From the IMG/VR virus record IMGVR_UViG_3300042895_002216: a stretch of 64,000 nucleotides of DNA; one strand, 5' to 3'. Below are positions 1 through 36,216 of the stretch, piece after piece; position 1 is the first letter of the stretch; the number at the start of each line of letters is the position of its first letter. A program made the translations under genes and the position numbers. Source of the DNA: a virus (Duplodnaviria > Heunggongvirae > Uroviricota > Caudoviricetes). The notes beneath the pieces are model-generated. The model did not search any database. It saw only the letters and a list, made by a program, of their open reading frames with translations, and was not told the origin of the DNA.

Positions 1-146
1 TCCATGGCCAGTCAAGCTCAAACGTTGGTGGAGAGTCAAGTTGTGGGTATGGACCTGTAGAACCCGATTTATCTGGGACCTGAGCTATCAACACAACATT
101 TTTAAGAAGCGAAAGTAGCAGGCCCAGCTCTTGTATAAATAATTCC

Positions 147-650
147 ATGTTTAAGTACATTGCCGAAATATTAAAGAGCTTTACTCCAGCGCAGCGTATA
201 ACTGCCCTACTTATCCTGGTGTTTACGATTGTGATCGTGACGCTTGGACCTTCCACTATTGACCGCCACACGAACACGTGCGATGAACTTAATATTAGAA
301 TCGCAAGTCAGGAGAAACAAATCATTGCTCTTACCTCACAGGTCGAGCAGCTCAACTCAAATCTAATTTCCGGCCAGACCGAGTGTACGGCCAACCTGAT
401 TCAAAAGCAGCAAGAGATCATGAGTATCGTTAACCAAATGATTGATGAGACTCAGCGTAATATCAATTCTAAAAAGGTGCATGAAAGACGAATCATGCAC
501 GAAGAAATCGCACAGGACCCAAACGAGCCAAGGATGGCCTATTCAGTAGAGCCTGAACCTATACAAGTCCAGGTACCGGATGGCAAAGAGACCCTAATCA
601 AACTTAAGCAGCTAAAGACCAAGCTTCAAAAGACAATCGAAAAACAGTAA
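147..650 (+). CDS. hypothetical protein with N-terminal TM helix and coiled-coil region
   Basis: ORF of 167 aa with a hydrophobic N-terminal segment (ITALLILVFTIVIVTL) and heptad-like Q/E/L-rich stretches. No recognisable catalytic motif. Confidence 0.5.
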   Translation: MFKYIAEILKSFTPAQRITALLILVFTIVIVTLGPSTIDRHTNTCDELNIRIASQEKQIIALTSQVEQLNSNLISGQTECTANLIQKQQEIMSIVNQMIDETQRNINSKKVHERRIMHEEIAQDPNEPRMAYSVEPEPIQVQVPDGKETLIKLKQLKTKLQKTIEKQ

Positions 651-692
651 CTCTTGCTAATAAATAATCCTGTAAAAAAATACTAAATTACA

Positions 693-1145
693 ATGGATGA
701 ATTTTTAGCAATGATTAAATTATTTGCAGGCGGATACGAGCCAATCGGCTGGATGTACTGCGATGGTCGAGCGTTATCAATTAGAAACTACACTGCTCTG
801 TATGCAGTAATCGGAACAAATTTCGGCGGAGACGGTGTCAATACCTTCTGTTTGCCTGACCTTAGAGGTCGAGTTGCAGTTGGTGCAGGTTCAGGTAACG
901 GGCTGACTCCAGTTAATACTGGCGAAAAGGGTGGAACTGAAGCAAATGTTCTAACTCAACACCATGTTAACATTAATACCTTAACTAAAAATTTCGATAT
1001 CAAAGAAACTGGTAGAGATGGAGTTCCTAGTGTTGTAACAAGCGTAACTGCTTCAGAAGAATGGGCACCAATTAATAATCGCCAACCTTACCTAGGTATA
1101 AACTACATTATTTGCGTAGAAGGAGTATTTCCATCTAGAAGCTAA
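693..1145 (+). CDS. phage tail collar domain protein (T4 gp12-like Collar/MdpB domain)
   Basis: KLFAGGYEPIGWMYCDGRALSIRNYTALYAVIGTNFGGDGVNTFCLPDLRGRVAVGAG matches the conserved phage tail-collar fibre domain signature. An ATAAATAAT motif lies about 30 nt upstream. Confidence 0.7.
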   Translation: MDEFLAMIKLFAGGYEPIGWMYCDGRALSIRNYTALYAVIGTNFGGDGVNTFCLPDLRGRVAVGAGSGNGLTPVNTGEKGGTEANVLTQHHVNINTLTKNFDIKETGRDGVPSVVTSVTASEEWAPINNRQPYLGINYIICVEGVFPSRS

Positions 1146-1158
1146 TATAACTAGAGCA

Positions 1159-1461
1159 ATGAAGCACATTAAACTATTTGAAGAGATTAACCGAGAAGAC
1201 GAAGACGAATTATCTGCATTGGGCTTTGACACAGACGACCTTAAACTTAGACGATTTGCTCAACAAGTTTCGGACGAGATCCTTGACGAATACGATTATG
1301 CGGTAGACTCAGGCCGAATATCTGCTAGAGAATATTCCCCCGAAGAAATGTACAAGTACGTAAAGGAACTTTGTTCAGACAACGATATCACAGCAGACGA
1401 AGTAATTGCTGACTTTGAATGGCGCTCGATTACTTGGGAACTTGGGCTTGGAAACATATAA
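1159..1461 (+). CDS. leader-family small acidic protein (MKHIKLFEE N-terminus)
   Basis: 100-aa ORF starting MKHIKLFEEINREDEDELSALGFD. The N-terminus is shared with more than 15 paralogous leaders elsewhere in the window. Confidence 0.6.
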   Translation: MKHIKLFEEINREDEDELSALGFDTDDLKLRRFAQQVSDEILDEYDYAVDSGRISAREYSPEEMYKYVKELCSDNDITADEVIADFEWRSITWELGLGNI

Positions 1462-1481
1462 ACCTTATAATTTAACAACTA

Positions 1482-1877
1482 ATGAAAATTGAAGTATCTA
1501 CTGGCGAGATCTTAGATAAACTTTCTATCCTAGAAATTAAGCTTGAGCATATCTTAGACCCAGTTAAACGAAATAACGTGTTACAGGAATATGTAATACT
1601 GGTAGCAGCCGCCGAAGAAATATATGATGCAACTCTTGAAACAGAAGAGCTTAGGGTTCTTTATTTAGATTTACTAAATATTAATAAAACACTATGGAAC
1701 ATCGAAGATCAAATCAGAGAATGCGAACGAGATGAAAGTTTCGGGTCTGATTTTATTGAACTTGCAAGGTCTGTGTACTACACAAACGATGACAGAGCTG
1801 AGGTAAAGAAACAGATTAATGCGTTAACCGGTTCTAAATTAGTTGAAGAAAAATCTTACCAAGACTATCAGAACTAA
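1482..1877 (+). CDS. hypothetical protein
   Basis: 131-aa ORF in tight spacing after the previous gene. Followed by the hairpin terminator at 1936-1966. Confidence 0.5.
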   Translation: MKIEVSTGEILDKLSILEIKLEHILDPVKRNNVLQEYVILVAAAEEIYDATLETEELRVLYLDLLNINKTLWNIEDQIRECERDESFGSDFIELARSVYYTNDDRAEVKKQINALTGSKLVEEKSYQDYQN

Positions 1878-1935
1878 CAAGCGTTTGTGATCGATTAAAT
1901 CAACAGCAACCTTTACGATTTCATTCGTATTGCTA

Positions 1936-1966
1936 ATGGGCCTCAGGAAACTGTAGCCCATTTTTT
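1936..1966 (+). terminator. intrinsic terminator
   Basis: ATGGGC-ctcaggaaactgta-GCCCAT hairpin followed by TTTTTT. Confidence 0.6.
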
Positions 1967-2150
1967 AGTATAATAATCCTAACAGCAAGCCCTCTGCTTA
2001 GCGCTGAGTAAGGATCGAAGACGGGGATAGCCTCTTGACCGTTAGGTTAGAGTACTTCGGTACTCTTTAGTCAATGCGCACTACGCCCACCGAATCGTGT
2101 GTCGGCACAGTTTGTACGTTCTGGGGGTAATACAAAAACGTACATTTTTA

Positions 2151-2250
2151 GTCAGGAGTCCATTGGTTGGAAGCACCTCCCCAAGGTTGAGTAGCGGTAA
2201 GGCCGACTCTTTATGGCAAAGCGGTAACAGGTTCGAATCCTGTCCTGACT
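2151..2250 (+). ncRNA. atypical tRNA-like element, identity unresolved
   Basis: 5' GTCAGGA pairs with 3' TCCTGAC, and a canonical T-arm (CAGGTTCGAATCCTG) is present. About 71 nt of non-cloverleaf sequence lies between them. Acceptor and T-arm are identical to the element at 53354-53472. Upstream (2020-2150) are strong hairpins including a GAGTAC-UUCG-GTACTC tetraloop. Confidence 0.4.
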
Positions 2251-2369
2251 TCTAAAATTAAAAAGTAGAGTATGAATCGTAGACAGGCAATAGCAAAGCT
2301 TATTATTATTTTAGCTAGCGTTACTATATCCGTATGGGCAATCGCTCAGCTCTTAATTGCTGTACAATA

Positions 2370-2801
2370 ATGGAAACACTTCAAATATGGACGGACGGTA
2401 GTTCGTTAGGAAATCCTGGCCCAGGCGGTTGGGGCGTAGTCATGAAATTCCGAGGCAAGACCATGGAATTATCTGGATCTACACCGGCCACGACAAACAA
2501 TCGAATGGAACTCACTGCCGTGGTTGAGGCTCTTGAAACAATTCCCAAGACAAAGTATCCAGTCAAGATCGAGTCAGACTCTAAATACGTGGTTGACTCA
2601 ATCTCTAAGGGTTGGGTTGACAATTGGGCAAGGAAGCCTGATTTCGCAGGTAAAAAGAACGAGGATCTTTGGAGAAGATACTTGATGGTTGCTCCTAACT
2701 TCGACTTGACTATCAGTTGGGTTAAGGGTCATAACGGCCATCCTGAAAACGAGCGTTGCGATTACTTAGCAACGACCGCAGCAAAAAATCAGAAACTTTA
2801 A
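2370..2801 (+). CDS. rnhA: ribonuclease HI
   Basis: WTDGSSLGNPGPGGWG, TNNRMEL, DSKYVV and VKGHNGHPENERCDYLA match the RNase H catalytic motifs (D-E-D-D). Start chosen at METLQIW. Confidence 0.85.
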   Translation: METLQIWTDGSSLGNPGPGGWGVVMKFRGKTMELSGSTPATTNNRMELTAVVEALETIPKTKYPVKIESDSKYVVDSISKGWVDNWARKPDFAGKKNEDLWRRYLMVAPNFDLTISWVKGHNGHPENERCDYLATTAAKNQKL

Positions 2802-2923
2802 ATTATGTTAGATATGGAAAATTACCCAAAATGGTTGAATAACCTAATCTATTTCTTTGCAGGAATAGGCTTCTCTCAAATCTTGATCAGAGTATTAGAT
2901 TGGTACGTAGGATAAATAATCCT

Positions 2924-3505
2924 ATGAAGCATATTAAACTTTTTGAGAACTGGTTTCAGGACGTAGAAGATAACGTTGATCGTAAGAGATTTGCGCCTGA
3001 GCTAGAACCTGAAGAGACTAAACCTGCTGAGACTGAAGAAGACCCGGCTGAACCTGAAGAGGAGAAGCCCGATACTCAGGAAGAACCTAAAGCAGAAGAG
3101 CCTACTGAGCCAGAGACATATTCCGGTTGGTTAAAGACCCAAGCTGGCGTAAGCGAAGTTGTTGAAGCTGAAGAAGGTACAGACAATTCAAATGGTTGGG
3201 TTCGCTTGTCAAATGGAGTATCCATTCAATGGGAAATCGATATGCGAGACTATCCGTTCCTTTCCGTAAGTTATATGCTTGATAAAAAAGTAATTCAGTT
3301 AGCTGATAATCCAGCCGGCGATCTTGCTCGACAATTCTACAAAGAGGGCCGTGAATACATTCCTAGAGAATGGGAGTCTGTTGTAATTAAAATAGGTGCA
3401 GGTGTTCCAGCCTTGATAAAGGATGCAATTGCTTCAAACAAGCGACGAATGAAGGAGCAGGACGAGATCTTATCAGGTCAAATCGTTGCAGCTTTTAGCA
3501 AATAA
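2924..3505 (+). CDS. leader-family protein with acidic Pro/Glu-rich linker
   Basis: Starts MKHIKLFENW, followed by a PEEEKPDTQEEPKAEEPTEPE low-complexity stretch and a C-terminal globular part. ATAAATAAT at 2912-2920. Confidence 0.6.
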   Translation: MKHIKLFENWFQDVEDNVDRKRFAPELEPEETKPAETEEDPAEPEEEKPDTQEEPKAEEPTEPETYSGWLKTQAGVSEVVEAEEGTDNSNGWVRLSNGVSIQWEIDMRDYPFLSVSYMLDKKVIQLADNPAGDLARQFYKEGREYIPREWESVVIKIGAGVPALIKDAIASNKRRMKEQDEILSGQIVAAFSK

Positions 3506-3513
3506 ATAACTCT

Positions 3514-3828
3514 ATGAAGCAGCACGTAAACCTATTCGAAGAATTCGATAACGACCAAGAAGAATTAAAATCCATGGGCTTCCGTAGCAAGCCAGACGGT
3601 TCACCTGACGAAAGATTCGACGAAGCTGTATCAGAGTGGTATCAAGATCCTGAAGTAACTGCAGCAATCGCTCTTCTTAAAAGAAAATCAACTGAAATCC
3701 TTGAAAAATGGATAGATTTTTCAGACGATGAGGATGAAACTGAATTTGACCAACGAGTATCATGGGTATACGACAATGGAGTTGATGACGTAGGCTGGTT
3801 TGAATTCGTAACAATGCTTGATAATTAA
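3514..3828 (+). CDS. leader-family small acidic protein
   Basis: MKQHVNLFEEFDNDQEELKSMGFRS is paralogous to the 1159 ORF N-terminus. ATAAATAAC at 3502-3510. Confidence 0.6.
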   Translation: MKQHVNLFEEFDNDQEELKSMGFRSKPDGSPDERFDEAVSEWYQDPEVTAAIALLKRKSTEILEKWIDFSDDEDETEFDQRVSWVYDNGVDDVGWFEFVTMLDN

Positions 3829-3851
3829 TTACTACTATATAAAATTAAAGC

Positions 3852-3878
3852 AAAGGCTTCCACATGGAAGCCTTTGTT
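3852..3878 (+). terminator. intrinsic terminator
   Basis: AAAGGCTTCC-acat-GGAAGCCTTTG hairpin. It lies inside the annotated 5' end of the 3818 ORF, which argues for the downstream start at 3893. Confidence 0.5.
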
Positions 3879-3892
3879 GGTATAGTAGAATA

Positions 3893-4417
3893 ATGGAATA
3901 CGAACAACTCATTCAAGGCTGTATTGAAAACAATAGAGAATACCAAAAGACCCTGTTCGATAAGTTTGCTGGTAAATTCATGACTATCGCAAAGAGGTAC
4001 ATGAAAGACCCTATGTTAGCCGAAGACGTATTGATGGAAGGATTTTATAAAATATACAAGAATCTTGGGAAATTCAAAGGAGAAGGTTCCTTTGAAGGGT
4101 GGATGAGACGAATCATCGTGAATACTGCGCTTACTAAACTCAAGCAGAACAAGCACGAGTTTAATGAGTGTAACTTAGTAACAGCGGAGGCAGTCAGTAT
4201 AGATCCAACTTACTATGAAACAGCATCAGCCGAAGAGTTAATGTCTCTGATTAGCACTCTTCCGATTGGATATCGTACCGTTTTTAACATGTACGTAATT
4301 GACGGATTTTCCCATAGGGAAATTGCAAAGGAACTTAACATACAAGAAGCCTCAAGTAGATCACAGCTATTTAAGGCAAAGGATTTTTTACAAAAACGAA
4401 TAAACCCAAATACATGA
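3893..4417 (+). CDS. ECF-type sigma-70 family RNA polymerase sigma factor
   Basis: Region-2-like segment (FDKFAGKFMTIAKRYMKDPMLAEDVLMEGFYKIYKNLGKFKGEGSFEGWMRRIIVNTA) and region-4-like HTH (YRTVFNMYVIDGFSHREIAKELNIQEASSRSQLFKAKDFLQKRI). Start set after the terminator. Confidence 0.8.
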   Translation: MEYEQLIQGCIENNREYQKTLFDKFAGKFMTIAKRYMKDPMLAEDVLMEGFYKIYKNLGKFKGEGSFEGWMRRIIVNTALTKLKQNKHEFNECNLVTAEAVSIDPTYYETASAEELMSLISTLPIGYRTVFNMYVIDGFSHREIAKELNIQEASSRSQLFKAKDFLQKRINPNT

Positions 4418-4506
4418 AAAATTGGAAATCAAATGATTGGCTCGGATTCTTGCTTGTTGCAGGATGGTTCGTCTTTATCGCTTGGATTGCTATCAAGTTC
4501 GGATAG
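4414..4506 (+). CDS. 30-aa single-TM peptide, ATGA-coupled to the sigma factor gene
   Basis: MKNWKSNDWLGFLLVAGWFVFIAWIAIKFG. Its ATG overlaps the sigma gene's TGA. Too short for a confident call. Confidence 0.3.
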   Translation: MKNWKSNDWLGFLLVAGWFVFIAWIAIKFG

Positions 4507-4540
4507 CCCACGGATAAATAACCAAAAGAATTAATCTTTA

Positions 4541-4765
4541 ATGCAACATATTAAATTATTCGAACAATTTATAGCAGAATTCACAATGACTGAGCCGATT
4601 GTTAAACCTGCGCCAGTTAAAGAGCCTAGCACTCGACCTGCAACTAGACCCAAACCTAGTCCAATTCCTAGCAAACAACCGTTTAAACAACCTGAGCCAG
4701 CTAAGGCTCAAGCTGAGGATGTAATTGCTCGCCTAAAAAGTCTAGAATCAAATGAAGAGCTTTAA
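4541..4765 (+). CDS. leader-family Pro-rich small protein
   Basis: MQHIKLFEQF followed by a P/K/A-rich repeat region. ATAAATAAC at 4514-4522. Confidence 0.55.
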   Translation: MQHIKLFEQFIAEFTMTEPIVKPAPVKEPSTRPATRPKPSPIPSKQPFKQPEPAKAQAEDVIARLKSLESNEEL

Positions 4766-6110
4766 AACATTCTTAAATGAAGCTGACATTCGTCAGAACC
4801 CAGCAATAACTCCAGAATACTTAGGATCTCTTGATAAACGAGCAGAACAGAGCGCTCGTGAAGTTGAACAGAGACACGGTCGAGATATGGGTAGCCTAAT
4901 GAGAGCTGTCCGTGAAGTACAGATGTTACAACGCGGTAAAGAACGCCAGCTTGAAGAGTTAACTACTTCAGTAATCCTAAGCCAGTACGGTTCAATTCTT
5001 GGAGAAACTGAGTTAGACATTAAGATTCCAAACGATCCTCGTGAAATGAAAGCGAAGATGAAGGAGACTGATGACGACGATCAAGAAGATCAGGACAAAC
5101 CCAATTTCAAAGAGATTGAGGATGAGGATACTAAAACAGCAATCAATAAACGTAAGATCCTAAACATGATCGCTCAAGGCGAAGCCATTAATTCAAAGAA
5201 GATGTTAATGGGCGATGAGAACATGGAAGGTCTAACTCAATTATTTGGAGAGGCTAATGCCCGTAAAATGGTAGAGCTGCTAGTTACGATTACTGATATT
5301 TGTAATGCTAGAGACTGGAGAATACCTGAAGAGGTTGGAGCAAAAATGATTGAGCAAGGAGATTCCCTTGCCGGTATTTCAAAAATTGAATGGAAACCTA
5401 AATCTAAAAAGGATAACGATGATGATCAAGGTCAAGAAGACGGAGAGTCTGAAGAAGAGACAGTTGACGAAACGACTGTTCCTACCTTAGTTATTAGAGG
5501 AATGGACCAAGCAATGTTATTCCATGAATCTATTAAAGCAATTTGGGGACTGATTAATCAAGGAGGTCTTGCTAATCTAGACGATGAGACTATCCGAAAA
5601 GTGTTCATGAATACTGATACTGCCGCTGACGAAGTACAGGATCTTAAACGTGCTAAATTAACTGCAGCTGATCTTAGAGATTTTATCCAATCTTTCGAAG
5701 AAGTATTTGATATTGAAAACGGTAGAGAATACGTATGGGGTAAAATGATTGACTCAACAGTCGTATCTGATTCTGACTTCTTGGACCTAATGAAATTAAT
5801 ATTCACAGCAGCTCCGTTATACAGAACAGTTGGCGAACAGGAACCTCAATACACAGAGTCTGAAATCGCTGCTGCTAAAGAATCTTTTCCTAAAGCCAAA
5901 GCCATAGTAAATAACTTGATCCGTCTAATTAAACAGGAACTTGCTGATTGGGAAGACTCTCAATCTGATTCTAGCTACGATGAGCCTGACTTTACTATGC
6001 CAGCCAACGATAGAGAACTTGATCAAGTTGATATTCAGAACATGATTGATGCAGCTCTAGATAATAGAGACTTCGCTGAAGTTGAAAGGTTAAGTAACTT
6101 ACTTAAATAA
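4752..6110 (+). CDS. leader-family large acidic protein
   Basis: MKSFKTFLNEADIR N-terminus (K-x-F-x-x-F-x-NEA variant of the leader). 452 aa with D/E-rich segments. 14-nt overlap with the upstream gene. Confidence 0.6.
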   Translation: MKSFKTFLNEADIRQNPAITPEYLGSLDKRAEQSAREVEQRHGRDMGSLMRAVREVQMLQRGKERQLEELTTSVILSQYGSILGETELDIKIPNDPREMKAKMKETDDDDQEDQDKPNFKEIEDEDTKTAINKRKILNMIAQGEAINSKKMLMGDENMEGLTQLFGEANARKMVELLVTITDICNARDWRIPEEVGAKMIEQGDSLAGISKIEWKPKSKKDNDDDQGQEDGESEEETVDETTVPTLVIRGMDQAMLFHESIKAIWGLINQGGLANLDDETIRKVFMNTDTAADEVQDLKRAKLTAADLRDFIQSFEEVFDIENGREYVWGKMIDSTVVSDSDFLDLMKLIFTAAPLYRTVGEQEPQYTESEIAAAKESFPKAKAIVNNLIRLIKQELADWEDSQSDSSYDEPDFTMPANDRELDQVDIQNMIDAALDNRDFAEVERLSNLLK

Positions 6111-6113
6111 GTA

Positions 6114-6959
6114 ATGAAGCATCTTAAGATATTTGAAAGTTGGGTCAACGAATCCCTTACTGCTGATCAAATCGCTGATAAAATTCAAATAGCCGTTGCT
6201 GGTTCAGGAACTGCAGAGGGTGATTTAGTATCAGCAATCAAGTCTATTCCCGATGCTGCATCCATGGTTCGTGTAAACAAAGCACTTAAAACCGGGTTCG
6301 ATACAAAGAGCTGGGATTACGCAAGTGTTGGCGATGCAATTACCGGAGAACTTGGATCCTTTGATCAAGATTACTTGGATCAAATCAACACTCACATAAA
6401 GAATATTAGAGCTGAGAAGTACTTAGGATCTTTCGTTGCTCCTCCTCCACCTGAAGATACAGTATTAAAGGTTATTGAGCCTAGGGTAATCCAACATGAA
6501 GGCTACAAACCAAAGAAGTACATAGACTCTAAAGGAAATCCAACAGTCGGTGTAGGATTCAATCTAAACCGCTCTGACTCAACGTCAATGCTTAGGTCAG
6601 TTGGTGCAAATCCAATAAAGATAAAGTCAGGCCAGTCTGCATTAACCGATCAGCAGATTAAAGCTCTTCTGCATACTGATCTTCAAGCCGCAAAGTCTTT
6701 AGCTAAAACTTTAGTATCAGATAATGGGAAAGTCAGCATAGCTAAAGTTTGGCCAAGCTTGCCACAATCAGTACAAGGAGTCTTAATTGAAATGGTATTT
6801 AATTTAGGAGCTAAAGGCCTATCTGAGTTTAACACGTTTCTACTTCACATAGCTTCAAAGAATTTCAAGGCTGCATCCAAAGAGATGTTAAATTCTTCAT
6901 GGGCAAAACAGGTCGGTAATCGAGCAATAACTCTATCTAACATTGTTAAATCTGCATAA
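6114..6959 (+). CDS. leader-family protein with GH24 (T4-lysozyme-like) domain
   Basis: MKHLKIFESWVNE leader. HEGYKPKKYIDSKGNPTVGVGFNL carries the Glu/Asp/Thr catalytic arrangement of T4-type lysozyme. Confidence 0.75.
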   Translation: MKHLKIFESWVNESLTADQIADKIQIAVAGSGTAEGDLVSAIKSIPDAASMVRVNKALKTGFDTKSWDYASVGDAITGELGSFDQDYLDQINTHIKNIRAEKYLGSFVAPPPPEDTVLKVIEPRVIQHEGYKPKKYIDSKGNPTVGVGFNLNRSDSTSMLRSVGANPIKIKSGQSALTDQQIKALLHTDLQAAKSLAKTLVSDNGKVSIAKVWPSLPQSVQGVLIEMVFNLGAKGLSEFNTFLLHIASKNFKAASKEMLNSSWAKQVGNRAITLSNIVKSA

Positions 6960-6980
6960 CTTTAGTATATTATTACTAAG

Positions 6981-7403
6981 ATGATAGCAGAAAACCGAAA
7001 AGCCCGACACGAATACACATTTTTAGAGACATGGACCGCTGGGATCTCCTTAACTGGATCAGAGGTCAAGTCAATTAAGGCGGGTAACCTTGACTTTACT
7101 GGATCCTGGTGCGAACTTCGGTCAGGTGAATGCTTCTGTCGAGAACTGTACATAAAAGAATCAACCTCAGCATACAGTCACCAAGGTAAACGAGAGAGGA
7201 AGCTACTCTTAACTAAAAAGGAACTAAAGAAACTAAATAAACTGATGGACAGGGGCCTCACAATCGTTCCAGTAAAGATCTTCGTTAACTCGTCAGGTTT
7301 AATTAAGATTGCGATTGCTCTAGCCAAAGGAAAGAAGGATTGGGATAAGCGACATGTTATTAAAGAACGAGATCTCAGCCGAGCTTTAACCTCTGAATAC
7401 TAG
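6981..7403 (+). CDS. smpB: SsrA-binding protein SmpB
   Basis: NRKARHEYTFLETWTAGISLTGSEVKSIKAGNLDF ... RKLLLTKKELKKL ... IALAKGKKDWDKRHVIKERD aligns motif-by-motif with bacterial SmpB. The TAGTATATTAT motif at 6963-6973 sits immediately upstream, so the mRNA is probably leaderless. Confidence 0.85.
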   Translation: MIAENRKARHEYTFLETWTAGISLTGSEVKSIKAGNLDFTGSWCELRSGECFCRELYIKESTSAYSHQGKRERKLLLTKKELKKLNKLMDRGLTIVPVKIFVNSSGLIKIAIALAKGKKDWDKRHVIKERDLSRALTSEY

Positions 7404-7432
7404 AATAAATAACCCTGAAATAATTACATTAA

Positions 7433-8266
7433 ATGCCAAAGTACATTAAATTATTTGAAGCTTTCCAAAACGAAGCCCAAGCATATAAGTTCGATCCAAC
7501 TAAATCAGTCTTAACTGGAGCTGCAGTATACAGTGCTGGAACATCATACGCTAAATTTACACTAGGTCGAATCTATATTGCGACTGAAGATAATGAATCC
7601 ACCAAAAAAGCACCAGGAAACGTATTAGTCCTTTTAACGGCTAAGAACAAGGACGTTGAGAAAAAACTTACTGATCTTGGTGGAGTGGCTGCGGCTCTTC
7701 AAGCTAGCGAAATTAACGAACCGCCTGCAGCTGGAGGTGGAGTCTACAAGTATCAAGCATCCTACATATTTAATTTAACTGATCCAGTTGCAGGAGATCA
7801 AATTCTTGGTAAAATTGCAGCTGCTATTAACACAGCACCGACTGGTTCAACTGGAACAAGCGGTACAGCTGGAACTGCTGGAAGCAAGGGAGATTACGCA
7901 GAAGGTTTCTTTGGAAAAGATATTATGACAGCTTTTAGATCGCATGTCGCCGATGTTACTGGAGTTGCATATCAAGCAGCAACCAGTATTCCAGCGTATC
8001 AAGCATCTCTTCAAAACAAGGAACTAAACAAGAGACTTAATTCGGATGCTGAATTTTTAAAGTTAATGAAAGAGGTTGAAGAGCAAGCTAAGTTAACAAA
8101 CGTTGTTGACTTTACTACTGGAAAAACGAAGGATGGAAAGATCGATGCAAAATATCTTGAAATAAGAAAAAAGGTTGCAGCTAGAACTGAAGTAATTAAA
8201 AGTCAGTTAATGAATGCTGGTTCTACCGGTACATCAGGTACGGCTGGTACCGCAGGTAAAATCTAA
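7433..8266 (+). CDS. leader-family protein with Gly-X-Y (collagen-like) repeats
   Basis: MPKYIKLFEAF leader. GSTGTSGTAGTAG occurs twice. ATAAATAAC at 7405-7413. Confidence 0.6.
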   Translation: MPKYIKLFEAFQNEAQAYKFDPTKSVLTGAAVYSAGTSYAKFTLGRIYIATEDNESTKKAPGNVLVLLTAKNKDVEKKLTDLGGVAAALQASEINEPPAAGGGVYKYQASYIFNLTDPVAGDQILGKIAAAINTAPTGSTGTSGTAGTAGSKGDYAEGFFGKDIMTAFRSHVADVTGVAYQAATSIPAYQASLQNKELNKRLNSDAEFLKLMKEVEEQAKLTNVVDFTTGKTKDGKIDAKYLEIRKKVAARTEVIKSQLMNAGSTGTSGTAGTAGKI

Positions 8267-8276
8267 TTAATTGTTA

Positions 8277-9416
8277 ATGAAGCACTTACAACTGTTTGAA
8301 AACTGGAAAGACGAATTATCTACAAGCCAATCTCAATTGGCTGAGCTCGATGCTCTGCGCGATTTCGCAATTATATCAGCAGACGATTACGCTCAACAAG
8401 GAAAGGCTCTTCTGAGCAAGATCGCTGGAATTAATCGTAAACTTCTTAAAGACGCTGATGCGACTCATCCTCGATGGTCAGCTGAGTGGTTAGCTGAAAT
8501 TTCTGAGTACCCTTCTCTTACTTGGTTAACTGATTCGCTAGCTTCGCCTGAATTACAGTCACTATTGGCAAAAGGATTTTATCCATGTTCAAGTAATATT
8601 CAACTGGGAAACCGTACCTTAATGCTATCTAAAAATCCTAACTATTCTCCATTAACTGATACAGCAATTGGATTCTTTTCTTCAATTAATGTAGTACGTC
8701 GAATCGTGCAGAAGCCTAATCCTAAGATGACTTACATGGATCAAAAGCTTAAAGAACTAGATGGAGGTCTTTCTCCAGTAGAGTTCATGAAGCAGGCAAG
8801 TCTATGGGTTCAGGAGAATTTAGTTCTAGAAGTAGACTACCTTCCAAGTAAAAGAGCTTATGCAAGTGATGTAAAGAAAGAGAATCAAGTCGAATTAATG
8901 TATTCAACTCTTGAGACTAAATTTGCAGAGCGCGGCGTTAATTTAGATAGAACACAAATTAAAGCTCTTCCAATTCGAGGTCTGTATCACGGGTCAGTTG
9001 AGATGGCAAAATTAATAAAGCTGCTACAAAAGCAAACCGATCAGTCAAAACCTCTTGAGCTGCCGTTAAACGAGTGGAGTAAATACACTCAGTCAGAAAT
9101 AGATGCAATGTCTAATCCTAATTTAGTATGGACCGTTTCAGCAAACGGCCAGCTCCGATTTGGGTTAGGCTACCCTTACGACAACAATATCCCAACCGAT
9201 ATTAGCAGATTAAATATCAAGCTTGAGTCTACGACTATTCTTGATTACGTATCGGCTGCTAGTACTCAGGTTACGAATCAGTTATTAACTAAATTATCTC
9301 AAGCTGGACTGCAATTCATACAGAAGCTTGAGTGTCCAACTGAAGAGATTGACTTGGACATGTACCCAACTATTCAAGTTAATGAAATCAAAAATATCAG
9401 AGACCAACGTCGATGA
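8277..9416 (+). CDS. leader-family protein
   Basis: MKHLQLFENWKDEL leader. 380 aa. Confidence 0.6.
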   Translation: MKHLQLFENWKDELSTSQSQLAELDALRDFAIISADDYAQQGKALLSKIAGINRKLLKDADATHPRWSAEWLAEISEYPSLTWLTDSLASPELQSLLAKGFYPCSSNIQLGNRTLMLSKNPNYSPLTDTAIGFFSSINVVRRIVQKPNPKMTYMDQKLKELDGGLSPVEFMKQASLWVQENLVLEVDYLPSKRAYASDVKKENQVELMYSTLETKFAERGVNLDRTQIKALPIRGLYHGSVEMAKLIKLLQKQTDQSKPLELPLNEWSKYTQSEIDAMSNPNLVWTVSANGQLRFGLGYPYDNNIPTDISRLNIKLESTTILDYVSAASTQVTNQLLTKLSQAGLQFIQKLECPTEEIDLDMYPTIQVNEIKNIRDQRR

Positions 9417-10849
9417 AACACATACAGCTATACGAAAGCTGGATATTTGAGAATGTCCAAGCAGCAAAAGCATACATGCTTAAGAGAGCAGCACAGTCTC
9501 TAGGAAAAGAAGTAAGTGAACTTACTCCTGAGGAACAGACTCGTGCTCTAAACAATCGTCAATACCTAGAAGTACTTGAATTACTTGGTCAAAAATACAA
9601 TGGTTACTTAGGAACTTTCGTTAAATTCCATTTCGAACAGAGAATTTCAGTAGACCAATTGAAACAACTATTGGACCAAATGATTAAGTACCGTCAACTA
9701 GTTAGCACTCTTCCATATACACTAGATGCCTATTCAAACGGAAATCCTGAACCTGGATCTACAGTTTCAGGTTTTGAAGCGCTAATGGACCAGTTCAGAA
9801 CATTTGAATTTAATTCCAAAGGTAAATGGATAATTGATGCTCTTCCTAGAGAACTTAGAGATCAGGCTCGTGCTCTTGATCCGGAAAAACAAAAGGAACT
9901 TATTCGTATTGGTTGGACAATCGCTGATCAGGGCGAAGCTATTCAAAAGAGAGTAATGTCCAAAGTTGCTCGCTACCGAACTATTCAAGATTTCATGAAG
10001 TATGCATTAGATATTTCAAGCTCAGATGAAGGTTCTCAAAAATTAGTAGCTCAAGCTGAAAGTCTTTCTCCTGAAATTCAGGTAATGTACGATGATAATA
10101 ATTACGTGGTCTTTTCAGTTAGGACTGAAGCTGCACAGAAAGCAATATTCCGTATGGCTAACTGGTGTCTAAACACTGGAAGTTGGGACTCTTATGTAAG
10201 TCGTGGAGTTCAATTAAATATCCTTAACTTTAATGTTCCGAATAGTGATCCAATGTTTGTAACTGGAACAACAGTCCTTGCCTCAGACTCAAGTGTTAAA
10301 GCGTCACACGATGCAAACGACCGCAATATAAAGAAAGATTCTGATCCAGCTACTCATTTACAAATGAACGGCTATCCGGAAGATCTTGTTAATCAAGTAA
10401 TTGCACTACTTCCGTCTGAGATAGTGGTGAAGACTGTTCTTGCAAATATTATGTCTAAAGCAGGAGTTGATGCAAAGATCCAATCACTTGCGGTTGCAGG
10501 TCATGATCTAGAAACCCTAACTGATCCAGTCGCTAGAGAACAGGTTGAAAGAGATTTGCTAATTATTATTGATAACGAATTTGAATCAGAGAATTTCTCA
10601 ACTGAAGCAATGTTGGAAGGATTCAAGAAACATGGAATACTTTCAATGTTCGCTGCTAAGCTATACCATAAACTTCTAGTAGGTAAAATCTCTCAAGAAG
10701 ATGTTGATGCAATCTTTGCTAAGACAGAAAGAGGCTTTGAACTCTTAACCAGAAATGTAAACAACTGGCCTGATCCAAAGATTAAGGCAAAGATTACTGC
10801 CGTGCTTGCCGCGAAAGATCAAATTCTGAATTTAGCAAGAACTGTCTAA
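9413..10849 (+). CDS. leader-family protein
   Basis: MKHIQLYESW leader. 478 aa. ATGA-type overlap with the upstream gene. Confidence 0.6.
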   Translation: MKHIQLYESWIFENVQAAKAYMLKRAAQSLGKEVSELTPEEQTRALNNRQYLEVLELLGQKYNGYLGTFVKFHFEQRISVDQLKQLLDQMIKYRQLVSTLPYTLDAYSNGNPEPGSTVSGFEALMDQFRTFEFNSKGKWIIDALPRELRDQARALDPEKQKELIRIGWTIADQGEAIQKRVMSKVARYRTIQDFMKYALDISSSDEGSQKLVAQAESLSPEIQVMYDDNNYVVFSVRTEAAQKAIFRMANWCLNTGSWDSYVSRGVQLNILNFNVPNSDPMFVTGTTVLASDSSVKASHDANDRNIKKDSDPATHLQMNGYPEDLVNQVIALLPSEIVVKTVLANIMSKAGVDAKIQSLAVAGHDLETLTDPVAREQVERDLLIIIDNEFESENFSTEAMLEGFKKHGILSMFAAKLYHKLLVGKISQEDVDAIFAKTERGFELLTRNVNNWPDPKIKAKITAVLAAKDQILNLARTV

Positions 10850-10873
10850 GACTTATTTAGTATAATAGTCTTA

Positions 10874-11488
10874 ATGATAGACAATTTACAACTTATTAAA
10901 CCCCTTTTAAACTTTTCAGAGAAGGGAGACTTCTATATGCTGTACGTGTTTAAACGTAAGAAGGATCAGCCGGAGGGAGAGAGAGACAATCACCAGTCAG
11001 TTAGAACAATCAAAACCTATTGTATTGAAAGCCTTGACCATTTAGATAGAAGATGGGAAGAGATCTTGCAGTTATGTGAGATGTTTAAGGCTCGTGCATA
11101 CATTCATGTACAAAAACAGAATCATTTTGACGTTAGCTTAAACATGATGGTTGCTCTTGCTCAAAGAATTCAAGACGGCAACACCAATCAAAAGGGTCTG
11201 TTCGACTCAGTCGTCGGTCAAATCAAAACTCAAGAAAAGAGATGGATTGTTGATATCGATACTAAAGATGAGATCACAGTTCATAGGATCGTTCATATAA
11301 TCGATTCAAATATAAAGCCTGAGGGCTCAAAGATTATTACATGTATTCCAACCAAGAACGGTTATCACCTGATCACCAAGCGTTTTGATGTATTGGAGTT
11401 TACAAAATACATGAAACTTCAAGGAGATGTTCCAGATATTCAAAAGAAGAACCCTACTTTATTATATTATCCAAATAGTTTAGATTAA
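10874..11488 (+). CDS. hypothetical protein
   Basis: 204-aa ORF. The TAGTATAATAG motif at 10858-10868 ends about 6 nt before the ATG, suggesting a leaderless mRNA. Confidence 0.5.
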   Translation: MIDNLQLIKPLLNFSEKGDFYMLYVFKRKKDQPEGERDNHQSVRTIKTYCIESLDHLDRRWEEILQLCEMFKARAYIHVQKQNHFDVSLNMMVALAQRIQDGNTNQKGLFDSVVGQIKTQEKRWIVDIDTKDEITVHRIVHIIDSNIKPEGSKIITCIPTKNGYHLITKRFDVLEFTKYMKLQGDVPDIQKKNPTLLYYPNSLD

Positions 11489-11490
11489 TT

Positions 11491-11688
11491 ATGCAAAATC
11501 AAATCATTCAAGACGTATGTCTTTATTTCTTATTCGGTATTTGTTGGATGATACTCGTTGAGTACATCGACTCCAAACAACCTGAGAAACAGTTAACTGT
11601 AATTGCTAGAATAGTAATTATCGTAACGTGGCCGCTAGCCGCATTCATTGGGATCCTAACCCTAATTCGAAAATCATTAAACAATTAA
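11491..11688 (+). CDS. small membrane protein
   Basis: 65 aa with two hydrophobic helices. Confidence 0.4.
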   Translation: MQNQIIQDVCLYFLFGICWMILVEYIDSKQPEKQLTVIARIVIIVTWPLAAFIGILTLIRKSLNN

Positions 11689-11690
11689 CA

Positions 11691-11900
11691 ATGGCAAAAA
11701 CCGTAGTAGTAAAAGAACAGTTCAGAACAAACGAACTAAGCCTAAACCCAGGTGGGTACACAGTTACCGTAGTATATTCAAACGGCGACAAGCGAGTTTA
11801 TAATAACGTAAAGAATCCCAAAGCCTACATTGGATCAATATCGAAAGCACAAGATGTTTCTCAAGCCCTAGTTGACGGAGAACTTTATTGGTCTCGATAA
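11691..11900 (+). CDS. hypothetical protein
   Basis: Start moved to MAKTVVVKEQ to avoid overlapping the previous gene. Confidence 0.4.
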   Translation: MAKTVVVKEQFRTNELSLNPGGYTVTVVYSNGDKRVYNNVKNPKAYIGSISKAQDVSQALVDGELYWSR

Positions 11901-11916
11901 ATAACTAGAAAGCACT

Positions 11917-12723
11917 ATGCATAAATTAAGTTTCGTTTGCACGTCCTATCGTAGGTACCGTTGCGTTGAACGAATAATCGAACAGTACTTACAACAAGAC
12001 TATCGAAATGCTGAGCTAATTATCTTAAATACTGATACTGACAATCCATTTCGGTTATCTGATGGATTGCTGTATGCAAATATTACAGTAATTAATAATT
12101 CAATTGATTACGTTACTGGATTACCGTATACTAATCGTGGAGCCATTTGTAGAGATGCAGTCTCCCATGCAACTGGCGACTACTTCATGTTAGCTGATGA
12201 CGATGATGTTTACTTGCCTTGGCATTTTAGACAAGCAGTTGAAGGTATAATTGAAATCGGGCACGATTCATGGAAACCTGAGATGAGTATGTTTGCGGCT
12301 CCTAATAAGCTAGAGCTTGTTCGTAATACAATGGAGGCATCCGTTATTGTAAAGATGCACAGAATCAGAGAGATTGGTTTCCGAACTGATGCAACCGGGT
12401 ATGAAGGTTTAAGCTGGTACACCAAGCTTAGAGATGAGGGTCAATTGGACGAGCACAACCCACGATATATTCCTTCTTACTGCTTTAACTGGTCAGATCC
12501 AGCTGAATTGGCTGGCCATAAACAGAGCGGCGATATCAACAATCCAAATAACTTTGAGAACCATAAGTTAAGTTCAAGAGATATTTCAGATAAGCCACTA
12601 GATCGCTGCGGCTCTCTAGAGATTACTAAGTTCTATCAAAAGTACTTTGATTTCTTACGAGCAAATCAAGATAAGTTCAGTCAAGATCTTTGGGGCAGGT
12701 ACGCAAAAACGTATATCGGTTAA
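11917..12723 (+). CDS. glycosyltransferase-like protein (GT-A fold, DxD)
   Basis: LSFVCTSYRRYR..IILNTDTDN..GDYFMLADDDDVYLP resembles the nucleotide-sugar binding region and DxD motif of GT-A glycosyltransferases. ATAAATAAC at 11897-11905. Confidence 0.5.
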   Translation: MHKLSFVCTSYRRYRCVERIIEQYLQQDYRNAELIILNTDTDNPFRLSDGLLYANITVINNSIDYVTGLPYTNRGAICRDAVSHATGDYFMLADDDDVYLPWHFRQAVEGIIEIGHDSWKPEMSMFAAPNKLELVRNTMEASVIVKMHRIREIGFRTDATGYEGLSWYTKLRDEGQLDEHNPRYIPSYCFNWSDPAELAGHKQSGDINNPNNFENHKLSSRDISDKPLDRCGSLEITKFYQKYFDFLRANQDKFSQDLWGRYAKTYIG

Positions 12724-27614: not shown

Positions 27615-29537
27615 TTATTTTTTTATGATTTTAGTAGAGTTAATTTGATCAACTGCCTGTAAAGAAGCAACGTATAATCCGCTAGTTAACTGATTAATAT
27701 TGGAAGAGTATACGTATTTTCCAGCTGGCATGTCTTGATCAAGTATAACAAATTGTTCTGATCCGTTTAGGTCAACGATTACTAACTTAACCATTCCGCT
27801 ATTCTTAACTGAGAAGTCAAAGCTTATCTCTCCAGTAGTTGGATTGGGAAATGCGGTAATTTCAAAGTTATCCAATTGACCAGAAGGTCCAGCCATTTTA
27901 GCAACGATTAAGATGCCGTTTGCTGCGGTGATTGATAAATCCCTAGATTGATTGTCTCCTGAGAATTTTCTAGAAGTATACAAAGGCGATGCCTCCCAAT
28001 CAATTTGAGGTTTAAGTGCGATAAATCTCAATTTAAAAACTTCATAATTATCTGGAATCATGTAGCTTTTGTTAGCTGATGGATCGTAACCGGCCCATTC
28101 GATAATTCCGCCAGTTGGATTGAATGAAGACATCCACTGCATTGATTTAGCAGAGTTAGTAATGTCTTTAAATTCCAATAAGGTCTGATCGTATAACATT
28201 GCTAATTGAAGAGACGAAATATCCTTTCCTCCAGTTTTAACAGTAACCGGTATTTCTACTAGATTTCCTGAATTTACAGAAAGATTAGGAAGATTAACTT
28301 CAATTGAGCTCGTTGGAAAATCGTATTCAACTGTCATATCAATTACGTTTTCAGTTTGAGCTGGGGTTCCAGCCGGTGGATTGATCATTACTTCAATTGG
28401 CGTTAAACGAGCCATGTTGTAACCCGTACCGTTTGCATCTCCTGGAACAAGTACGTAATATTGAACTGAATCAGGTTGTCCTGGTAAAATGTCGTAGTAG
28501 AAGTTTGTTACTCCAGCATAAGTTGAAGTATAGTTAGTCGATGGAGATCCTGTGATTGTTGTGTATTGGGCAGCAGTAAAGAACTTAACATCCTCAACGG
28601 CATTAGGCCATTCAGTGAATCTTCCAGCAATTCTACCAAATACTCCGTATGCATCAGTTATTGTTACGTTAGTTGAACCGTTAACATCTGCTGTATAGAA
28701 GTCGAATCCGGAAGGAGTCGCTGACCCTAACACCCATTGATTAATTAATTGAGCATCTGCTGTTGATATAACGTTTCCTACCGTCATCGTATCACCTTTA
28801 ATTGCAAGGCGTACATCATAATAAGTAGTATCAATAATTTCGCTAAATGCAAAATTTCCACTTAGGTCAGTTACGTACGTATCATGAGTTCCCCAAGTAC
28901 CTCCAGCTTTTACCTTTTTCTCAAGAGCTAAAGTTAAGTTCTTTGCTCCAGTTCCAGTAACGTTTGTAAATTTACCATGGAAGTCTAAAGTAGGCTGTTC
29001 CCATACACCGCCGTAGCTATGCTTGCTTAGAGTAGTATCTAAACCTGTCTGAGATGCAGCGAGTGTAGTAAAAGAAGCTGCGCCACTAAACGTAAGAGCA
29101 CTGATTGAGGGTAACGCATAAAACGATGCAGCTGCAACGTGAGTAAAGGTTATTTCAAAGGTTTCACCGTCCGCTAGAGTATAAGTACTGCTGTTTCCAG
29201 TATACACTAATGAAAGGGTTACGTAACCGGTAGCATTACTATCTACTGACTGTAAATATAAGTTAGTAGGCGATCCAACTAGCGCAACTGATGCACTAGC
29301 AAATGCATCCTTATCGTAAAATATTCGAGTTTGAATACCTGTGTATTTTGAGATAGTTGCATTCTTTAGCGTGATTCTGGCTTTGGACTGACCTAGCGTA
29401 CTTGTACCAACTTGATATGTCGTATCAATGATTGTCCAAATTCCTGCGCCTGGGGCAGGAGGTCCACTTTGAGCATAAACTCCAGTAGAGAGTGCGCACG
29501 TGACTAGTGCGAATAGAATAAAGATTATTTTTTTCAT
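27615..29537 (-). CDS. secreted protein with type IX secretion system C-terminal sorting domain
   Basis: Signal peptide MKKIIFILFALVTCALSTGVYAQ. The last ~80 aa (FPNPTTGEISFDFSV..VKLVIVDLNGSEQFVILDQ..LTSGLYVASLQAVDQINSTKIIK) matches the Por secretion tail (T9SS CTD) pattern. Confidence 0.7.
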   Translation of the reverse strand: MKKIIFILFALVTCALSTGVYAQSGPPAPGAGIWTIIDTTYQVGTSTLGQSKARITLKNATISKYTGIQTRIFYDKDAFASASVALVGSPTNLYLQSVDSNATGYVTLSLVYTGNSSTYTLADGETFEITFTHVAAASFYALPSISALTFSGAASFTTLAASQTGLDTTLSKHSYGGVWEQPTLDFHGKFTNVTGTGAKNLTLALEKKVKAGGTWGTHDTYVTDLSGNFAFSEIIDTTYYDVRLAIKGDTMTVGNVISTADAQLINQWVLGSATPSGFDFYTADVNGSTNVTITDAYGVFGRIAGRFTEWPNAVEDVKFFTAAQYTTITGSPSTNYTSTYAGVTNFYYDILPGQPDSVQYYVLVPGDANGTGYNMARLTPIEVMINPPAGTPAQTENVIDMTVEYDFPTSSIEVNLPNLSVNSGNLVEIPVTVKTGGKDISSLQLAMLYDQTLLEFKDITNSAKSMQWMSSFNPTGGIIEWAGYDPSANKSYMIPDNYEVFKLRFIALKPQIDWEASPLYTSRKFSGDNQSRDLSITAANGILIVAKMAGPSGQLDNFEITAFPNPTTGEISFDFSVKNSGMVKLVIVDLNGSEQFVILDQDMPAGKYVYSSNINQLTSGLYVASLQAVDQINSTKIIKK

Positions 29538-33558: not shown

Positions 33559-33646
33559 GGAGGATTGGCAGAGTGGTCGATCGCGGCAGTCTTGAAAACT
33601 GTTGTACCGCAAGGTACCGTAGGTTCGAATCCTACATCCTCCGCCA
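33559..33646 (+). tRNA. tRNA-Ser (anticodon TGA), class II with long variable arm, CCA encoded
   Basis: Acceptor GGAGGAT/ATCCTCC. Anticodon loop CTTGAAA. Variable hairpin GTACCgcaaGGTAC. T-arm GGTTCGAATCC. Confidence 0.8.
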
Positions 33647-33662
33647 AAAAAATCAATAAACA

Positions 33663-33851: not shown

Positions 33852-33865
33852 AAAAATAACAGTAT

Positions 33866-34821: not shown

Positions 34822-34842
34822 ATAATAAAAATAAGATCCCTA

Positions 34843-35394: not shown

Positions 35395-35420
35395 TAAATA
35401 AACAAAAATTACTTTTTAAA

Positions 35421-35984: not shown

Positions 35985-36016
35985 TTTTTAGTAAAGGGAA
36001 ACCTTTTTTAAAAAGT

Positions 36017-36192: not shown

Positions 36193-36216
36193 GAAATTAC
36201 ATAACTAACAACAACG

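Follow-up and report, generated by a model that had tools for sequence, protein, structure and literature searches.

Is a phage sigma factor whose stop codon overlaps the start codon of a small membrane peptide one half of a sigma/anti-sigma pair, and, if it is not, how is such a sigma controlled and which promoters does it read? These questions are raised by positions 3852 to 4506 of a 64,000-nucleotide stretch of tailed-phage DNA (Caudoviricetes; IMG/VR virus record IMGVR_UViG_3300042895_002216), the whole of which is called the window here. The identical sigma sequence is present on 47 contigs, the largest of them 271 kb long, and the window belongs to a jumbo phage whose genome measures at least 271 kb and includes T4-like replication genes. 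In the explanation that we consider probable, the gene encodes a functional, host-derived sigma factor of the extracytoplasmic function (ECF) type that has no anti-sigma factor, and the peptide is the product of a separate gene and is not an anti-sigma factor. The elements of the locus are the following.

3851-3876, plus strand: GC-rich hairpin, CAAAGGCTTCC-ACAT-GGAAGCCTTTG, with an 11-bp stem and a 4-nt loop
3877-3892, plus strand: promoter-like element of the kind called class A below, TTGGTATAGTAGAATA, with its core GTATAGTA at 3880-3887
3893-4417, plus strand: ECF (group 4) sigma factor of the sigma-70 family, 174 amino acids (aa), with the stop codon TGA at 4415-4417, assigned by Pfam, TIGR02937 and conservation
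4414-4506, plus strand: open reading frame (ORF) of 30 codons, MKNWKSNDWLGFLLVAGWFVFIAWIAIKFG, with a predicted single hydrophobic helix, specific to the phage lineage; its ATG (4414-4416) overlaps the sigma TGA, giving ATGA
4514-4521, plus strand: motif of the kind called class B below, ATAAATAA, the downstream boundary of the sigma-peptide unit, 27 nt before the next ATG (4541)

The initial annotation had described the first of the two ORFs as containing complete sigma-70 regions 2 and 4, and both domains are indeed matched above the Pfam cut-offs: Sigma70_r2 (PF04542) at residues 21-87 (7.6e-13; 48.5 bits against a cut-off of 24) and Sigma70_r4_2 (PF08281) at residues 114-165 (5.2e-14; 52.1 bits against 25.7). 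No Pfam match to region 1 or region 3 is found in the 174 aa, and the linker between the two domains is 26 aa long. The model TIGR02937 (sigma70-ECF) is passed with 80.9 bits (cut-off 42.9), and TIGR02985 (Sig70_bacteroi1), which describes a curated Bacteroidetes subfamily, is failed with 81.2 bits (cut-off 126.4); for the ECF-Hub group, ECF03-like would be a guess. Among the PHROGs families, the protein falls into phrog_1740, "RNA polymerase sigma factor" (2.7e-23), and the closest solved structures by sequence are ECF sigmas of the AlgU, sigma-E and SigW type. The start of the gene was also placed correctly, directly after a hairpin terminator and giving a protein of about 174 aa. An alternative TTG start at 3818 would be read through the hairpin and homologues start at the MEY/MEL position, so 3893 is taken as the start of the sigma.

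The residues that make an ECF sigma work are retained. When columns conserved in at least 85% of 35 cellular-type relatives are considered, 39 of 42 are matched and the three exceptions are conservative; residues of regions 2.4 and 4.2 that are incompatible with DNA binding, which had been named as a reason to abandon the assignment, are thus not what is seen. The region 2 block EGSFEGWMRRI is identical to the family consensus, and the recognition helix, SSRSQLFKAK, can be aligned with TSKSQLSRAR in the relatives and, in RpoE, with R171 and S172. Four haplotypes were compared, namely the window and loci L001, L093 and L094, the sigmas of the last two being about 87% and 95% identical to that of the window. 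Among them, the ratio of nonsynonymous to synonymous substitution rates (dN/dS) of the sigma gene is 0.06-0.19, at dS values of up to 0.9. Conservation supports binding to core polymerase, and the ORF is likely to encode a functional ECF sigma.

A total of 7,950 homologues of this sigma were retrieved, and the cellular ones (from Cytophagales, Sphingobacteriia, Saprospiraceae and others) are 42-53% identical to it. The gene that follows the sigma was extracted in 91 fetched loci. In the cellular relatives this is nearly always a gene for a protein with a single transmembrane (TM) helix. The N-terminal part of this protein has the motif FDxxxRxKLxxYxSxVPxxxWxxI followed by basic residues, the helix lies at about residues 35-50, and another 200-600 residues come after it. 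Overlap between the sigma gene and a downstream gene that encodes the N-terminal motif and the TM helix is seen in about 70 loci and typically measures 1, 4 or 11 nt. The motif is sometimes repeated 2-4 times, and the variable C-terminal part is sometimes an outer-membrane-protein beta-barrel. Neither this TM partner, which represents a protein class widespread in Bacteroidota, nor the 78-aa ORF of sister phages that is described below has a Pfam or NCBIfam match. From its position and topology, the partner would be the cognate anti-sigma factor. Upstream of the cellular sigma genes there is an ECF-type promoter, TGCAACC-N16-17-(C/G)(A/G)TCT, which reads as the autoregulatory promoter of the family (TGCAACC-N16-17-CATCT). 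Co-transcribed anti-sigma factors and autoregulation are typical of ECF sigmas, although not universal.

The phage copies differ in both respects. In a neighbour-joining tree of 40 sequences, the window sigma falls into one group with close variants of itself and the sigmas of other large phage-like contigs, one of them of 281 kb. This phage-only clade (the window, L002, L006, L011 and L013) appears to be nested among Bacteroidota chromosomal ECF sigmas, and a single acquisition is likely but not proven, since the tree is without bootstrap support. The TM partner follows none of the phage-clade sigmas in the fetched loci, and the ORFs that neighbour the window sigma gene have no Pfam match, so that no co-transcribed anti-sigma gene is recognized there. 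In sister phages the sigma gene is followed either by an HNH-like gene or, with a 23-nt overlap, by an ORF for a soluble, acidic protein of 78 aa, which is a better candidate for a phage-specific partner of the sigma than the 30-aa peptide is. The sister-phage sigma gene lies behind TTG-N19-TAnnTTTG, a canonical promoter for sigma-A of Bacteroidota, whose consensus is TAnnTTTG (PMC9723704).

L003-L006 6515-6751; L010 5515-5751; L011 2099-2335: conserved acidic ORF of 78 aa, MKAILEFDLNDS...

In the window, the sigma gene is instead preceded by a terminator and a phage-type promoter element. The hairpin at 3851-3876 has the longest stem among the terminator-like hairpins in positions 1-12000, and with its surroundings (67 nt) it reaches a minimum free energy of -27.5 kcal/mol (z = -8.0 against shuffles). 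The four haplotypes share an invariant stem and differ in the loop. The hairpin closes the upstream unit of late genes. It is the terminator in a terminator-then-promoter module that recurs: the same arrangement of hairpin, T-run and GTATAATA is also present at 1968, 43634, 49439, 53668 and 62960. An outer stem around the terminator, formed by CUACUAUAU (3832-3840) and GUAUAGUAG (3880-3888, in the class A core), was considered as well; its single variable pair is uncompensated in L001, and the pairing is probably fortuitous.

The element after the hairpin belongs to class A, TTTRGTATAWTAa, of which the window holds 19 intergenic sites on the plus strand, many of them directly after a hairpin and T-run. 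Counted from the G of the motif, position +13 is an A in 16 of the 19, and this conserved A is the likely start site of transcription. Six class A sites have an ATG that begins at +13 to +16, so that their mRNAs may be leaderless or nearly so. The sigma gene is one such case. As its ATG is placed exactly at +13, transcription is predicted to start at the A of this codon (3893) and to yield a leaderless mRNA. The element is kept in L001, L093 and L094. Nothing resembling the family autoregulatory promoter was found: the 64 nt upstream of the sigma gene hold the hairpin and GTATAGTA, and no GCAAC...TCT.

The ORF that follows had been reported to overlap the sigma stop codon and to encode a 30-residue single-pass membrane peptide. 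The overlap stands, at 4414-4417, and the predicted helix is plausible. Eight residues (MKNWKSND) precede it and three follow, and it is flanked by Trp and Lys. The best 19-residue Kyte-Doolittle mean is 2.29, a value that only 3 of the 188 (1.6%) ATG-initiated ORFs of 25-45 aa in the window reach, and the peptide is the most hydrophobic product of the 32 intergenic small ORFs there. The ORF is intact in L001, L002, L092, L093 and L094. Among the four haplotypes 19 of the 93 positions differ, with no indel and no new stop codon, and start, stop and length are kept; the substitutions (N7T, L10F, G11I, F12S, V15I, V20T, A23T, I25L and F29L) are largely conservative and preserve the helix in all four. 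Pairwise dN/dS values are 0.10-0.58, and L093 and L094 do not keep the +1 frame open. Only 2 positions vary in the 34 nt from the peptide stop to the next ATG. A phmmer search against 1.84 billion cluster representatives returned the peptide's own cluster only; searching every fetched locus and the window with a profile revealed no paralogue, and the sister phage clade is without the peptide. The ORF is probably a real gene for a lineage-specific small inner-membrane protein that is unrelated to the sigma.

The relation between the two genes is made clear by two of the related loci. The gene that takes up the ATGA position behind the sigma gene in L093 and L094 encodes an AAA+ ATPase of 343 aa (PF00004, 5.9e-11; phrog_2376, 4e-60). 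The order is sigma gene, ATGA, AAA+ gene, the hairpin ATGGGGCTTCGGCCCCATTTTT, about 25 AT-rich bases, and then the same 30-codon ORF, which reads MKNWKSTDWFGFLLVAGWFVFITWLAIKLG in L093 and MKNWKSNDWLISLLIAGWFVFIAWIAIKFG in L094.

L093 3522-4600 and L094 3522-4600, corresponding to window position 4414: cassette of about 1.08 kb, consisting of the AAA+ gene and a terminator hairpin

Because the two genes are separated in these loci, their adjacency in the window is the outcome of an indel and not a conserved operon; and because the AAA+ gene and a terminator intervene, the peptide gene is a separate unit whose overlap with the sigma gene is not conserved. The ATPase gene and the peptide gene open with nearly the same 13 bases, and both junctions have the microhomology ATGAAAAAnTGGA in common. 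The cassette is absent across the whole window, and both sub-lineages of the sigma include members with and without it. Its site looks like a recombination hotspot, and the arrangement in the window would fit either a deletion between the ATGAAAAAnTGGA repeats or an insertion elsewhere. Here the ATGA shared with a small membrane ORF turns out to reflect a 1.08-kb indel, a caution against inferring function from overlap alone.

The proposal that the two genes resemble a sigma/anti-sigma pair does not survive these comparisons. In addition to the intervening gene and terminator, there are only the eight residues before the helix, which leave no N-terminal sigma-binding domain, and there is no homology to the cellular partners. 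The peptide was also compared with them as a vestigial anti-sigma TM helix: a profile of 52 partner N-termini gave it 0.7 bits, and 279 of 1000 shuffles scored as well or better, in a comparison to which 30 aa lend little power. Regulation of the sigma by the peptide is unlikely on these grounds.

The preferred explanation can be put together as follows. A Bacteroidota chromosomal ECF family would have given rise to a phage-only clade, from which the window sigma would descend. In cells the family would be autoregulated and restrained by a translationally coupled, single-pass putative anti-sigma factor; the phage copies would have lost both the anti-sigma factor and the autoregulatory promoter. 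Because of these losses, the activity of the phage sigma would most likely be set simply by the timing of its gene's transcription, and would be constitutive otherwise. The gene would be transcribed from the class A promoter directly after the terminator, and its product would bind host core RNA polymerase and lead it to ECF-type promoters. The peptide gene would adjoin it only because the window haplotype is without the AAA+ cassette.

Which promoters these are can be predicted to some extent from the relatives. The positions equivalent to N84, R171 and S172 of Escherichia coli RpoE set the preferences at -12/-13, -31 and -34 (Todor et al.; PMC7776599). In the phage sigma they are occupied by T, R and S, and the T is common with the cellular relatives that use a CATCT -10 box. 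The predicted target is G(C/A)AAC-N16-17-(C/G)RTCT. In the window, 13 family-type ECF sites were found against 10.4 expected, which is no enrichment, and none of them is upstream of a gene; strict and loose patterns are at or below expectation. The scan was extended by 10 kb to the left of the window by means of L095, which is 100% identical to the window over the shared 5.7 kb, and again no family-type site was proximal to a gene. Nor is the window enriched in canonical sigma-A promoters of Bacteroidota (TTG-N17-23-TAnnTTTG). Since neither the 64 kb nor the adjoining 10 kb on the left contains gene-proximal family sites, the regulon would lie elsewhere, either in the rest of the phage genome, which is the preferred guess, or in the host chromosome.

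Several points weigh against this explanation. The phage clade of sigmas rests on the unbootstrapped tree mentioned above. The target is transferred from relatives of about 50% identity, and with a recognition helix of ASSRSQLFKAK against NTSKSQLSRAR the specificity could have shifted. The promoter scan reached only about 74 kb, or approximately a quarter, of a genome of at least 271 kb. Either presence or absence of the cassette could be ancestral, as it is found in both sigma sub-lineages. In the window haplotype, ATGA coupling would make synthesis of the peptide depend on translation of the sigma, and a derived functional link between the two in this haplotype is conceivable. As for the peptide itself, the excess of substitutions at third positions (9 of 19) is not significant (p = 0.15), and the antisense -1 frame remains open in all haplotypes and is equally conserved, because the third positions of the two frames coincide.

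The alternative that survives best concerns the regulon. The sigma might act on host genes, as an anti-sigma-free mimic that drives or out-competes the TGCAACC-N16-17-CATCT regulon or titrates the host anti-sigma factor. An identity of 42-53% to chromosomal sigmas, with nearly all conserved positions and the same key specificity residues, would suit such a role, as would the loss of the anti-sigma factor in all phage copies and the lack of family-type promoters near genes in the phage DNA that was scanned. Nevertheless, about 200 kb of the phage genome lies beyond the scanned part, and the usual targets of sigmas encoded by phages are genes of the phage (PMC7824862). Long-term purifying selection on a distinct clade confined to phages also suggests a role in the core programme of the phage. 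We regard host genes as the less likely place to look, although a serious one.

Nearly as much may be said for the view that the 30-codon ORF is not translated, and that the region is a conserved spacer or RNA element, or codes in the antisense frame 4511-4371, the hydrophobic frame being fortuitous. The third-position bias quoted above is compatible with it, the antisense frame opens with GTG or ATG in all haplotypes and has an equal dN/dS, gene callers passed over the ORF in some contigs, and the peptide has no homologues among the 1.84 billion representatives. Against it stand a start, stop and length that are kept without indels in four haplotypes and two genomic contexts, the largely conservative substitutions, and a hydrophobicity that few small ORFs in the window share. 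All the genes around it lie on the plus strand, the antisense ORF has a C-terminal extension that is not conserved, and other ORFs of 32-36 codons, at least one of them clearly hydrophobic, recur at syntenic places. Owing to the strand context, the conserved ATG and stop, and a textbook helix with Trp and Lys flanks, the sense frame is, on balance, probably the better reading of 4414-4506, and a purely fortuitous frame is rather doubtful.

The recurrent small ORFs are an observation of their own. Two more are present at 2272-2370 (32 aa, clearly hydrophobic, MNRRQAIAKLIIILASVTISVWAIAQLLIAVQ) and 2805-2915 (36 aa), and the gene calls of L001, L092, L093 and L094 include ORFs of equal size at the syntenic positions. 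In this phage, such small ORFs seem to be a recurrent feature.

Two promoter classes are recognized in the window, and their sites are as follows.

Plus strand, class A: 1968, 3880, 6965, 10860, 13911, 31526, 33049, 36019, 36773, 39268
Plus strand, class A, continued: 41126, 42417, 43634, 47872, 49439, 53081, 53668, 58937, 62960
Plus strand 1946, 31504, 35997 and 53059, minus strand 21318: class A sites that bear CTCAGGAAAC; three of the five precede tRNA genes or tRNA-like elements
Class B, among others: 135, 660, 2912, 3502, 4514, 7405, 11897, 12735, 34818, 35394, 40211, 56985, 62162

Class B, ATAAATAA, has 19 sites (17 on the plus and 2 on the minus strand), against about 13 expected on both strands together. 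About 15 of them are intergenic and 12-33 nt before a start codon on the same strand, where almost none would be expected by chance, and at four the ATG is exactly 12 nt from the start of the motif. The T4 late consensus is TATAAATA at -13 to -6, with a T at -13 that is weakly conserved among T4-like phages (PMC1524935), and class B matches it as a T4-type late promoter motif. Further class A sites precede tRNA clusters, the SmpB gene and genes of the topoisomerase/replication type. From the genes that carry each motif, the sigma-peptide unit would be of early/middle type, inserted between late-type genes, with a terminator upstream and a class B motif downstream.

It is also quite unlikely, although it can be argued, that the ECF sigma reads class A itself, and so regulates its own gene, or reads at least a five-member subset, CTCAGGAAAC-N16-TAGTATAAT, ahead of tRNA and non-coding RNA clusters. 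The sigma gene starts 13 nt behind a class A core. The five sites of the subset carry GGAAA at ECF-like spacing, 16 nt upstream, against 0.55 expected; GGAAAC is one base away from the family -35 core GCAAC, and some relatives have GTATCT as their -10 box. Class A also mismatches the sigma-A consensus of Bacteroidota (TAnnTTTG; PMC9723704). Most class A sites, however, are without a -35 signal, and ECF sigmas normally require both boxes (PMC7776599). A TATAAT core with T and R-G just upstream is an extended -10 of the sigma-70 type, and the residue with which the ECF sigma would read its -10 box is that of relatives using CATCT. Moreover, a second sigma of the same phage fits the hybrid promoters better.

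L095 1-732: second sigma, at least 242 aa, about 9-10 kb to the left of window position 1 and about 13 kb upstream of the ECF gene

Region 2 of this second sigma is RpoD/RpoS-like (TIGR02393, RpoD_Cterm, 5e-32), and its region 4 also matches ECF-type models. This RpoD-like protein would be the better candidate reader of class A promoters, which are of the TATAAT type (TRGTATAAT), hybrids included. In the window, no second ECF-like sigma was found with the hidden Markov model of the family, and no gp55-like protein among the ten ORFs of 180-204 aa. Which of the two classes the ECF sigma recognizes had been left open by the initial annotation; by homology the sigma is predicted to read neither, and probably does not.

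Weakest of all, and very improbable, is the notion that the 30-aa peptide is a minimal membrane anti-sigma factor or tether, co-translated through the ATGA and holding the sigma until a signal arrives: the overlap does mirror those of 1, 4 and 11 nt in cellular sigma/anti-sigma pairs, the peptide is a plausible single-pass helix, and the arrangement is kept in L001, L002, L092 and L095, but eight residues before the helix and three after it compare with about 35 cytoplasmic residues in the cellular partners and with class I anti-sigma domains that are far larger, no similarity to those partners is seen, the peptide gene has its own leader in L093 and L094, and other phages carry the sigma clade without the peptide.

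The preferred explanation, that of a host-derived ECF sigma without an anti-sigma factor, can be set beside several known systems. Chromosomal Bacteroidota ECF modules, with RpoE-like group 4 sigmas, have their closest solved analogues by sequence in AlgU-MucA (6IN7), E. coli sigma-E-RseA (1OR7) and Bacillus subtilis SigW-RsiW (5WUQ). Like these modules, the phage locus has the sigma2-linker-sigma4 architecture, the block EGSFEGWM(R/K)RI, a helix with S(K/R)SQL and a downstream gene that overlaps the sigma stop codon; unlike them, it has neither a TM anti-sigma factor nor TGCAACC-N16-17-CATCT, and a phage promoter after a terminator is present instead. The peptide resembles anti-sigma factors with a class I anti-sigma domain, such as RseA and RsiW, in being encoded directly downstream of an ECF sigma, with a stop/start overlap and one predicted TM helix. 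It differs from them in its 30 aa, in its short pre-helix segment without an anti-sigma domain, in the absence of similarity, and in an adjacency that is not conserved.

Among phages, the T4-like "group 2" jumbo phages encode minimal sigmas of the gp55 type and RpoD-like sigmas acquired from cells (PMC7824862). The phage studied here is like them in its sigma genes, T4-like topoisomerase II, T4-type late motifs and second, RpoD-like sigma, and in the absence of RNA polymerase genes of its own from the part that was seen. In contrast to their sigmas, the ECF protein is of full ECF type with an intact region 4, and is neither a gp55-like single-domain protein nor RpoD-like. Sigmas of about 170-180 aa are also encoded by crAss-like Bacteroides phages ("RNA polymerase sigma-W factor", e.g., NC_055890); these align over 75-99% of the query but are only 23-32% identical to it and belong to a different clade. 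Phage sigmas as such are already known, and the distinguishing point here is that, within a Bacteroidota ECF family, a clade confined to phages has lost anti-sigma factor and autoregulation.

Although phage sigmas are a known route to the takeover of host transcription, those of the ECF type are poorly catalogued: the term ECF has no occurrence in the text of the jumbo-phage review (PMC7824862), and the reclassification of ECF sigmas states that phage ECFs were not captured (PMC7826278). Since the residues that contact DNA and core polymerase are kept, while the anti-sigma factor and autoregulation are lost, the protein may be a natural "always-on" ECF sigma. A bolder proposal is that this clade, kept under purifying selection in large Bacteroidota phages without a membrane anti-sigma factor, defines a third promoter class, in the form of a phage regulon beyond the window or of a host envelope-stress regulon that is turned on with no signal, and that the peptide is an independent effector at the host membrane; we offer it tentatively and think it possible but on the unlikely side. 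If it were true, the phage would run three sigma-type programmes: RpoD-like, T4-late-like and ECF. Should the regulon be found, it would distinguish a third transcriptional tier from a hijacked host stress regulon.

The host of the phage is most likely a member of Bacteroidota. One protein of the window carries a sorting domain that points in this direction.

27615-29537, minus strand: 640-aa protein with a cohesin domain and a C-terminal sorting domain of the type IX secretion system

This protein is apparently addressed to the type IX secretion system of the host, and we take such a domain in a phage protein to be a marker of a Bacteroidota host. The window also encodes T4-like topoisomerase II subunits, an RNA ligase and a helicase. 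The topoisomerase II is closest to that of uncultured phages of 630 kb, and five genomes of more than 634 kb have all been predicted to replicate in Bacteroidetes (Al-Shayeb et al.; PMC7162821). A megablast search against isolated phages gave no match, and IMG/VR holds no relative of the window sigma.

Several of the class B sites nearest to start codons precede ORFs that share an N-terminal motif, including both neighbours of the sigma-peptide unit (sites 3502 and 4514). Ten otherwise unrelated ORFs, at 1159, 2924, 3514, 4541, 6114, 7433, 8277, 9413, 12748 and 56997, start with MKH(I/L)K(L/I)(F/Y)E-x-(F/W). One of them is lysozyme-like, two flank the sigma-peptide unit, and several lie behind class B motifs. 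The motif resembles the capsid-targeting sequence MKTYQEFIAE of the internal head proteins of T4, which suggests a large set of proteins that are packaged into the capsid.

Finally, the window is rich in genes and elements related to tRNA, with 26 tRNA genes in all.

6981-7403; 33559-39216; 53120-53200; 59084-60011: SmpB gene, tRNA genes and a tRNA-Sec-like match

The tRNA-Sec-like match, at 59162-59244, is borderline (47.9 against 47 bits). Neither ARAGORN nor Rfam detected a transfer-messenger RNA in the window, and this holds also for the gap of 456 nt without coding sequence at 1878-2333, which adjoins the SmpB region (Rfam E <= 1). There are, in addition, tRNA-like elements that are called by neither program, at 2151-2250 and about 53353-53474 in the window and also in L010 (3 copies), L011, L092 and L094. 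Their acceptor stem and T arm are identical (AGTCAGG ... GGTTCGAATCCTGTCCTGACT) and their interiors variable, and both of those in the window lie downstream of the strongest class A promoters. These elements may be odd tRNAs or the tRNA-like 3' ends of non-coding RNAs.

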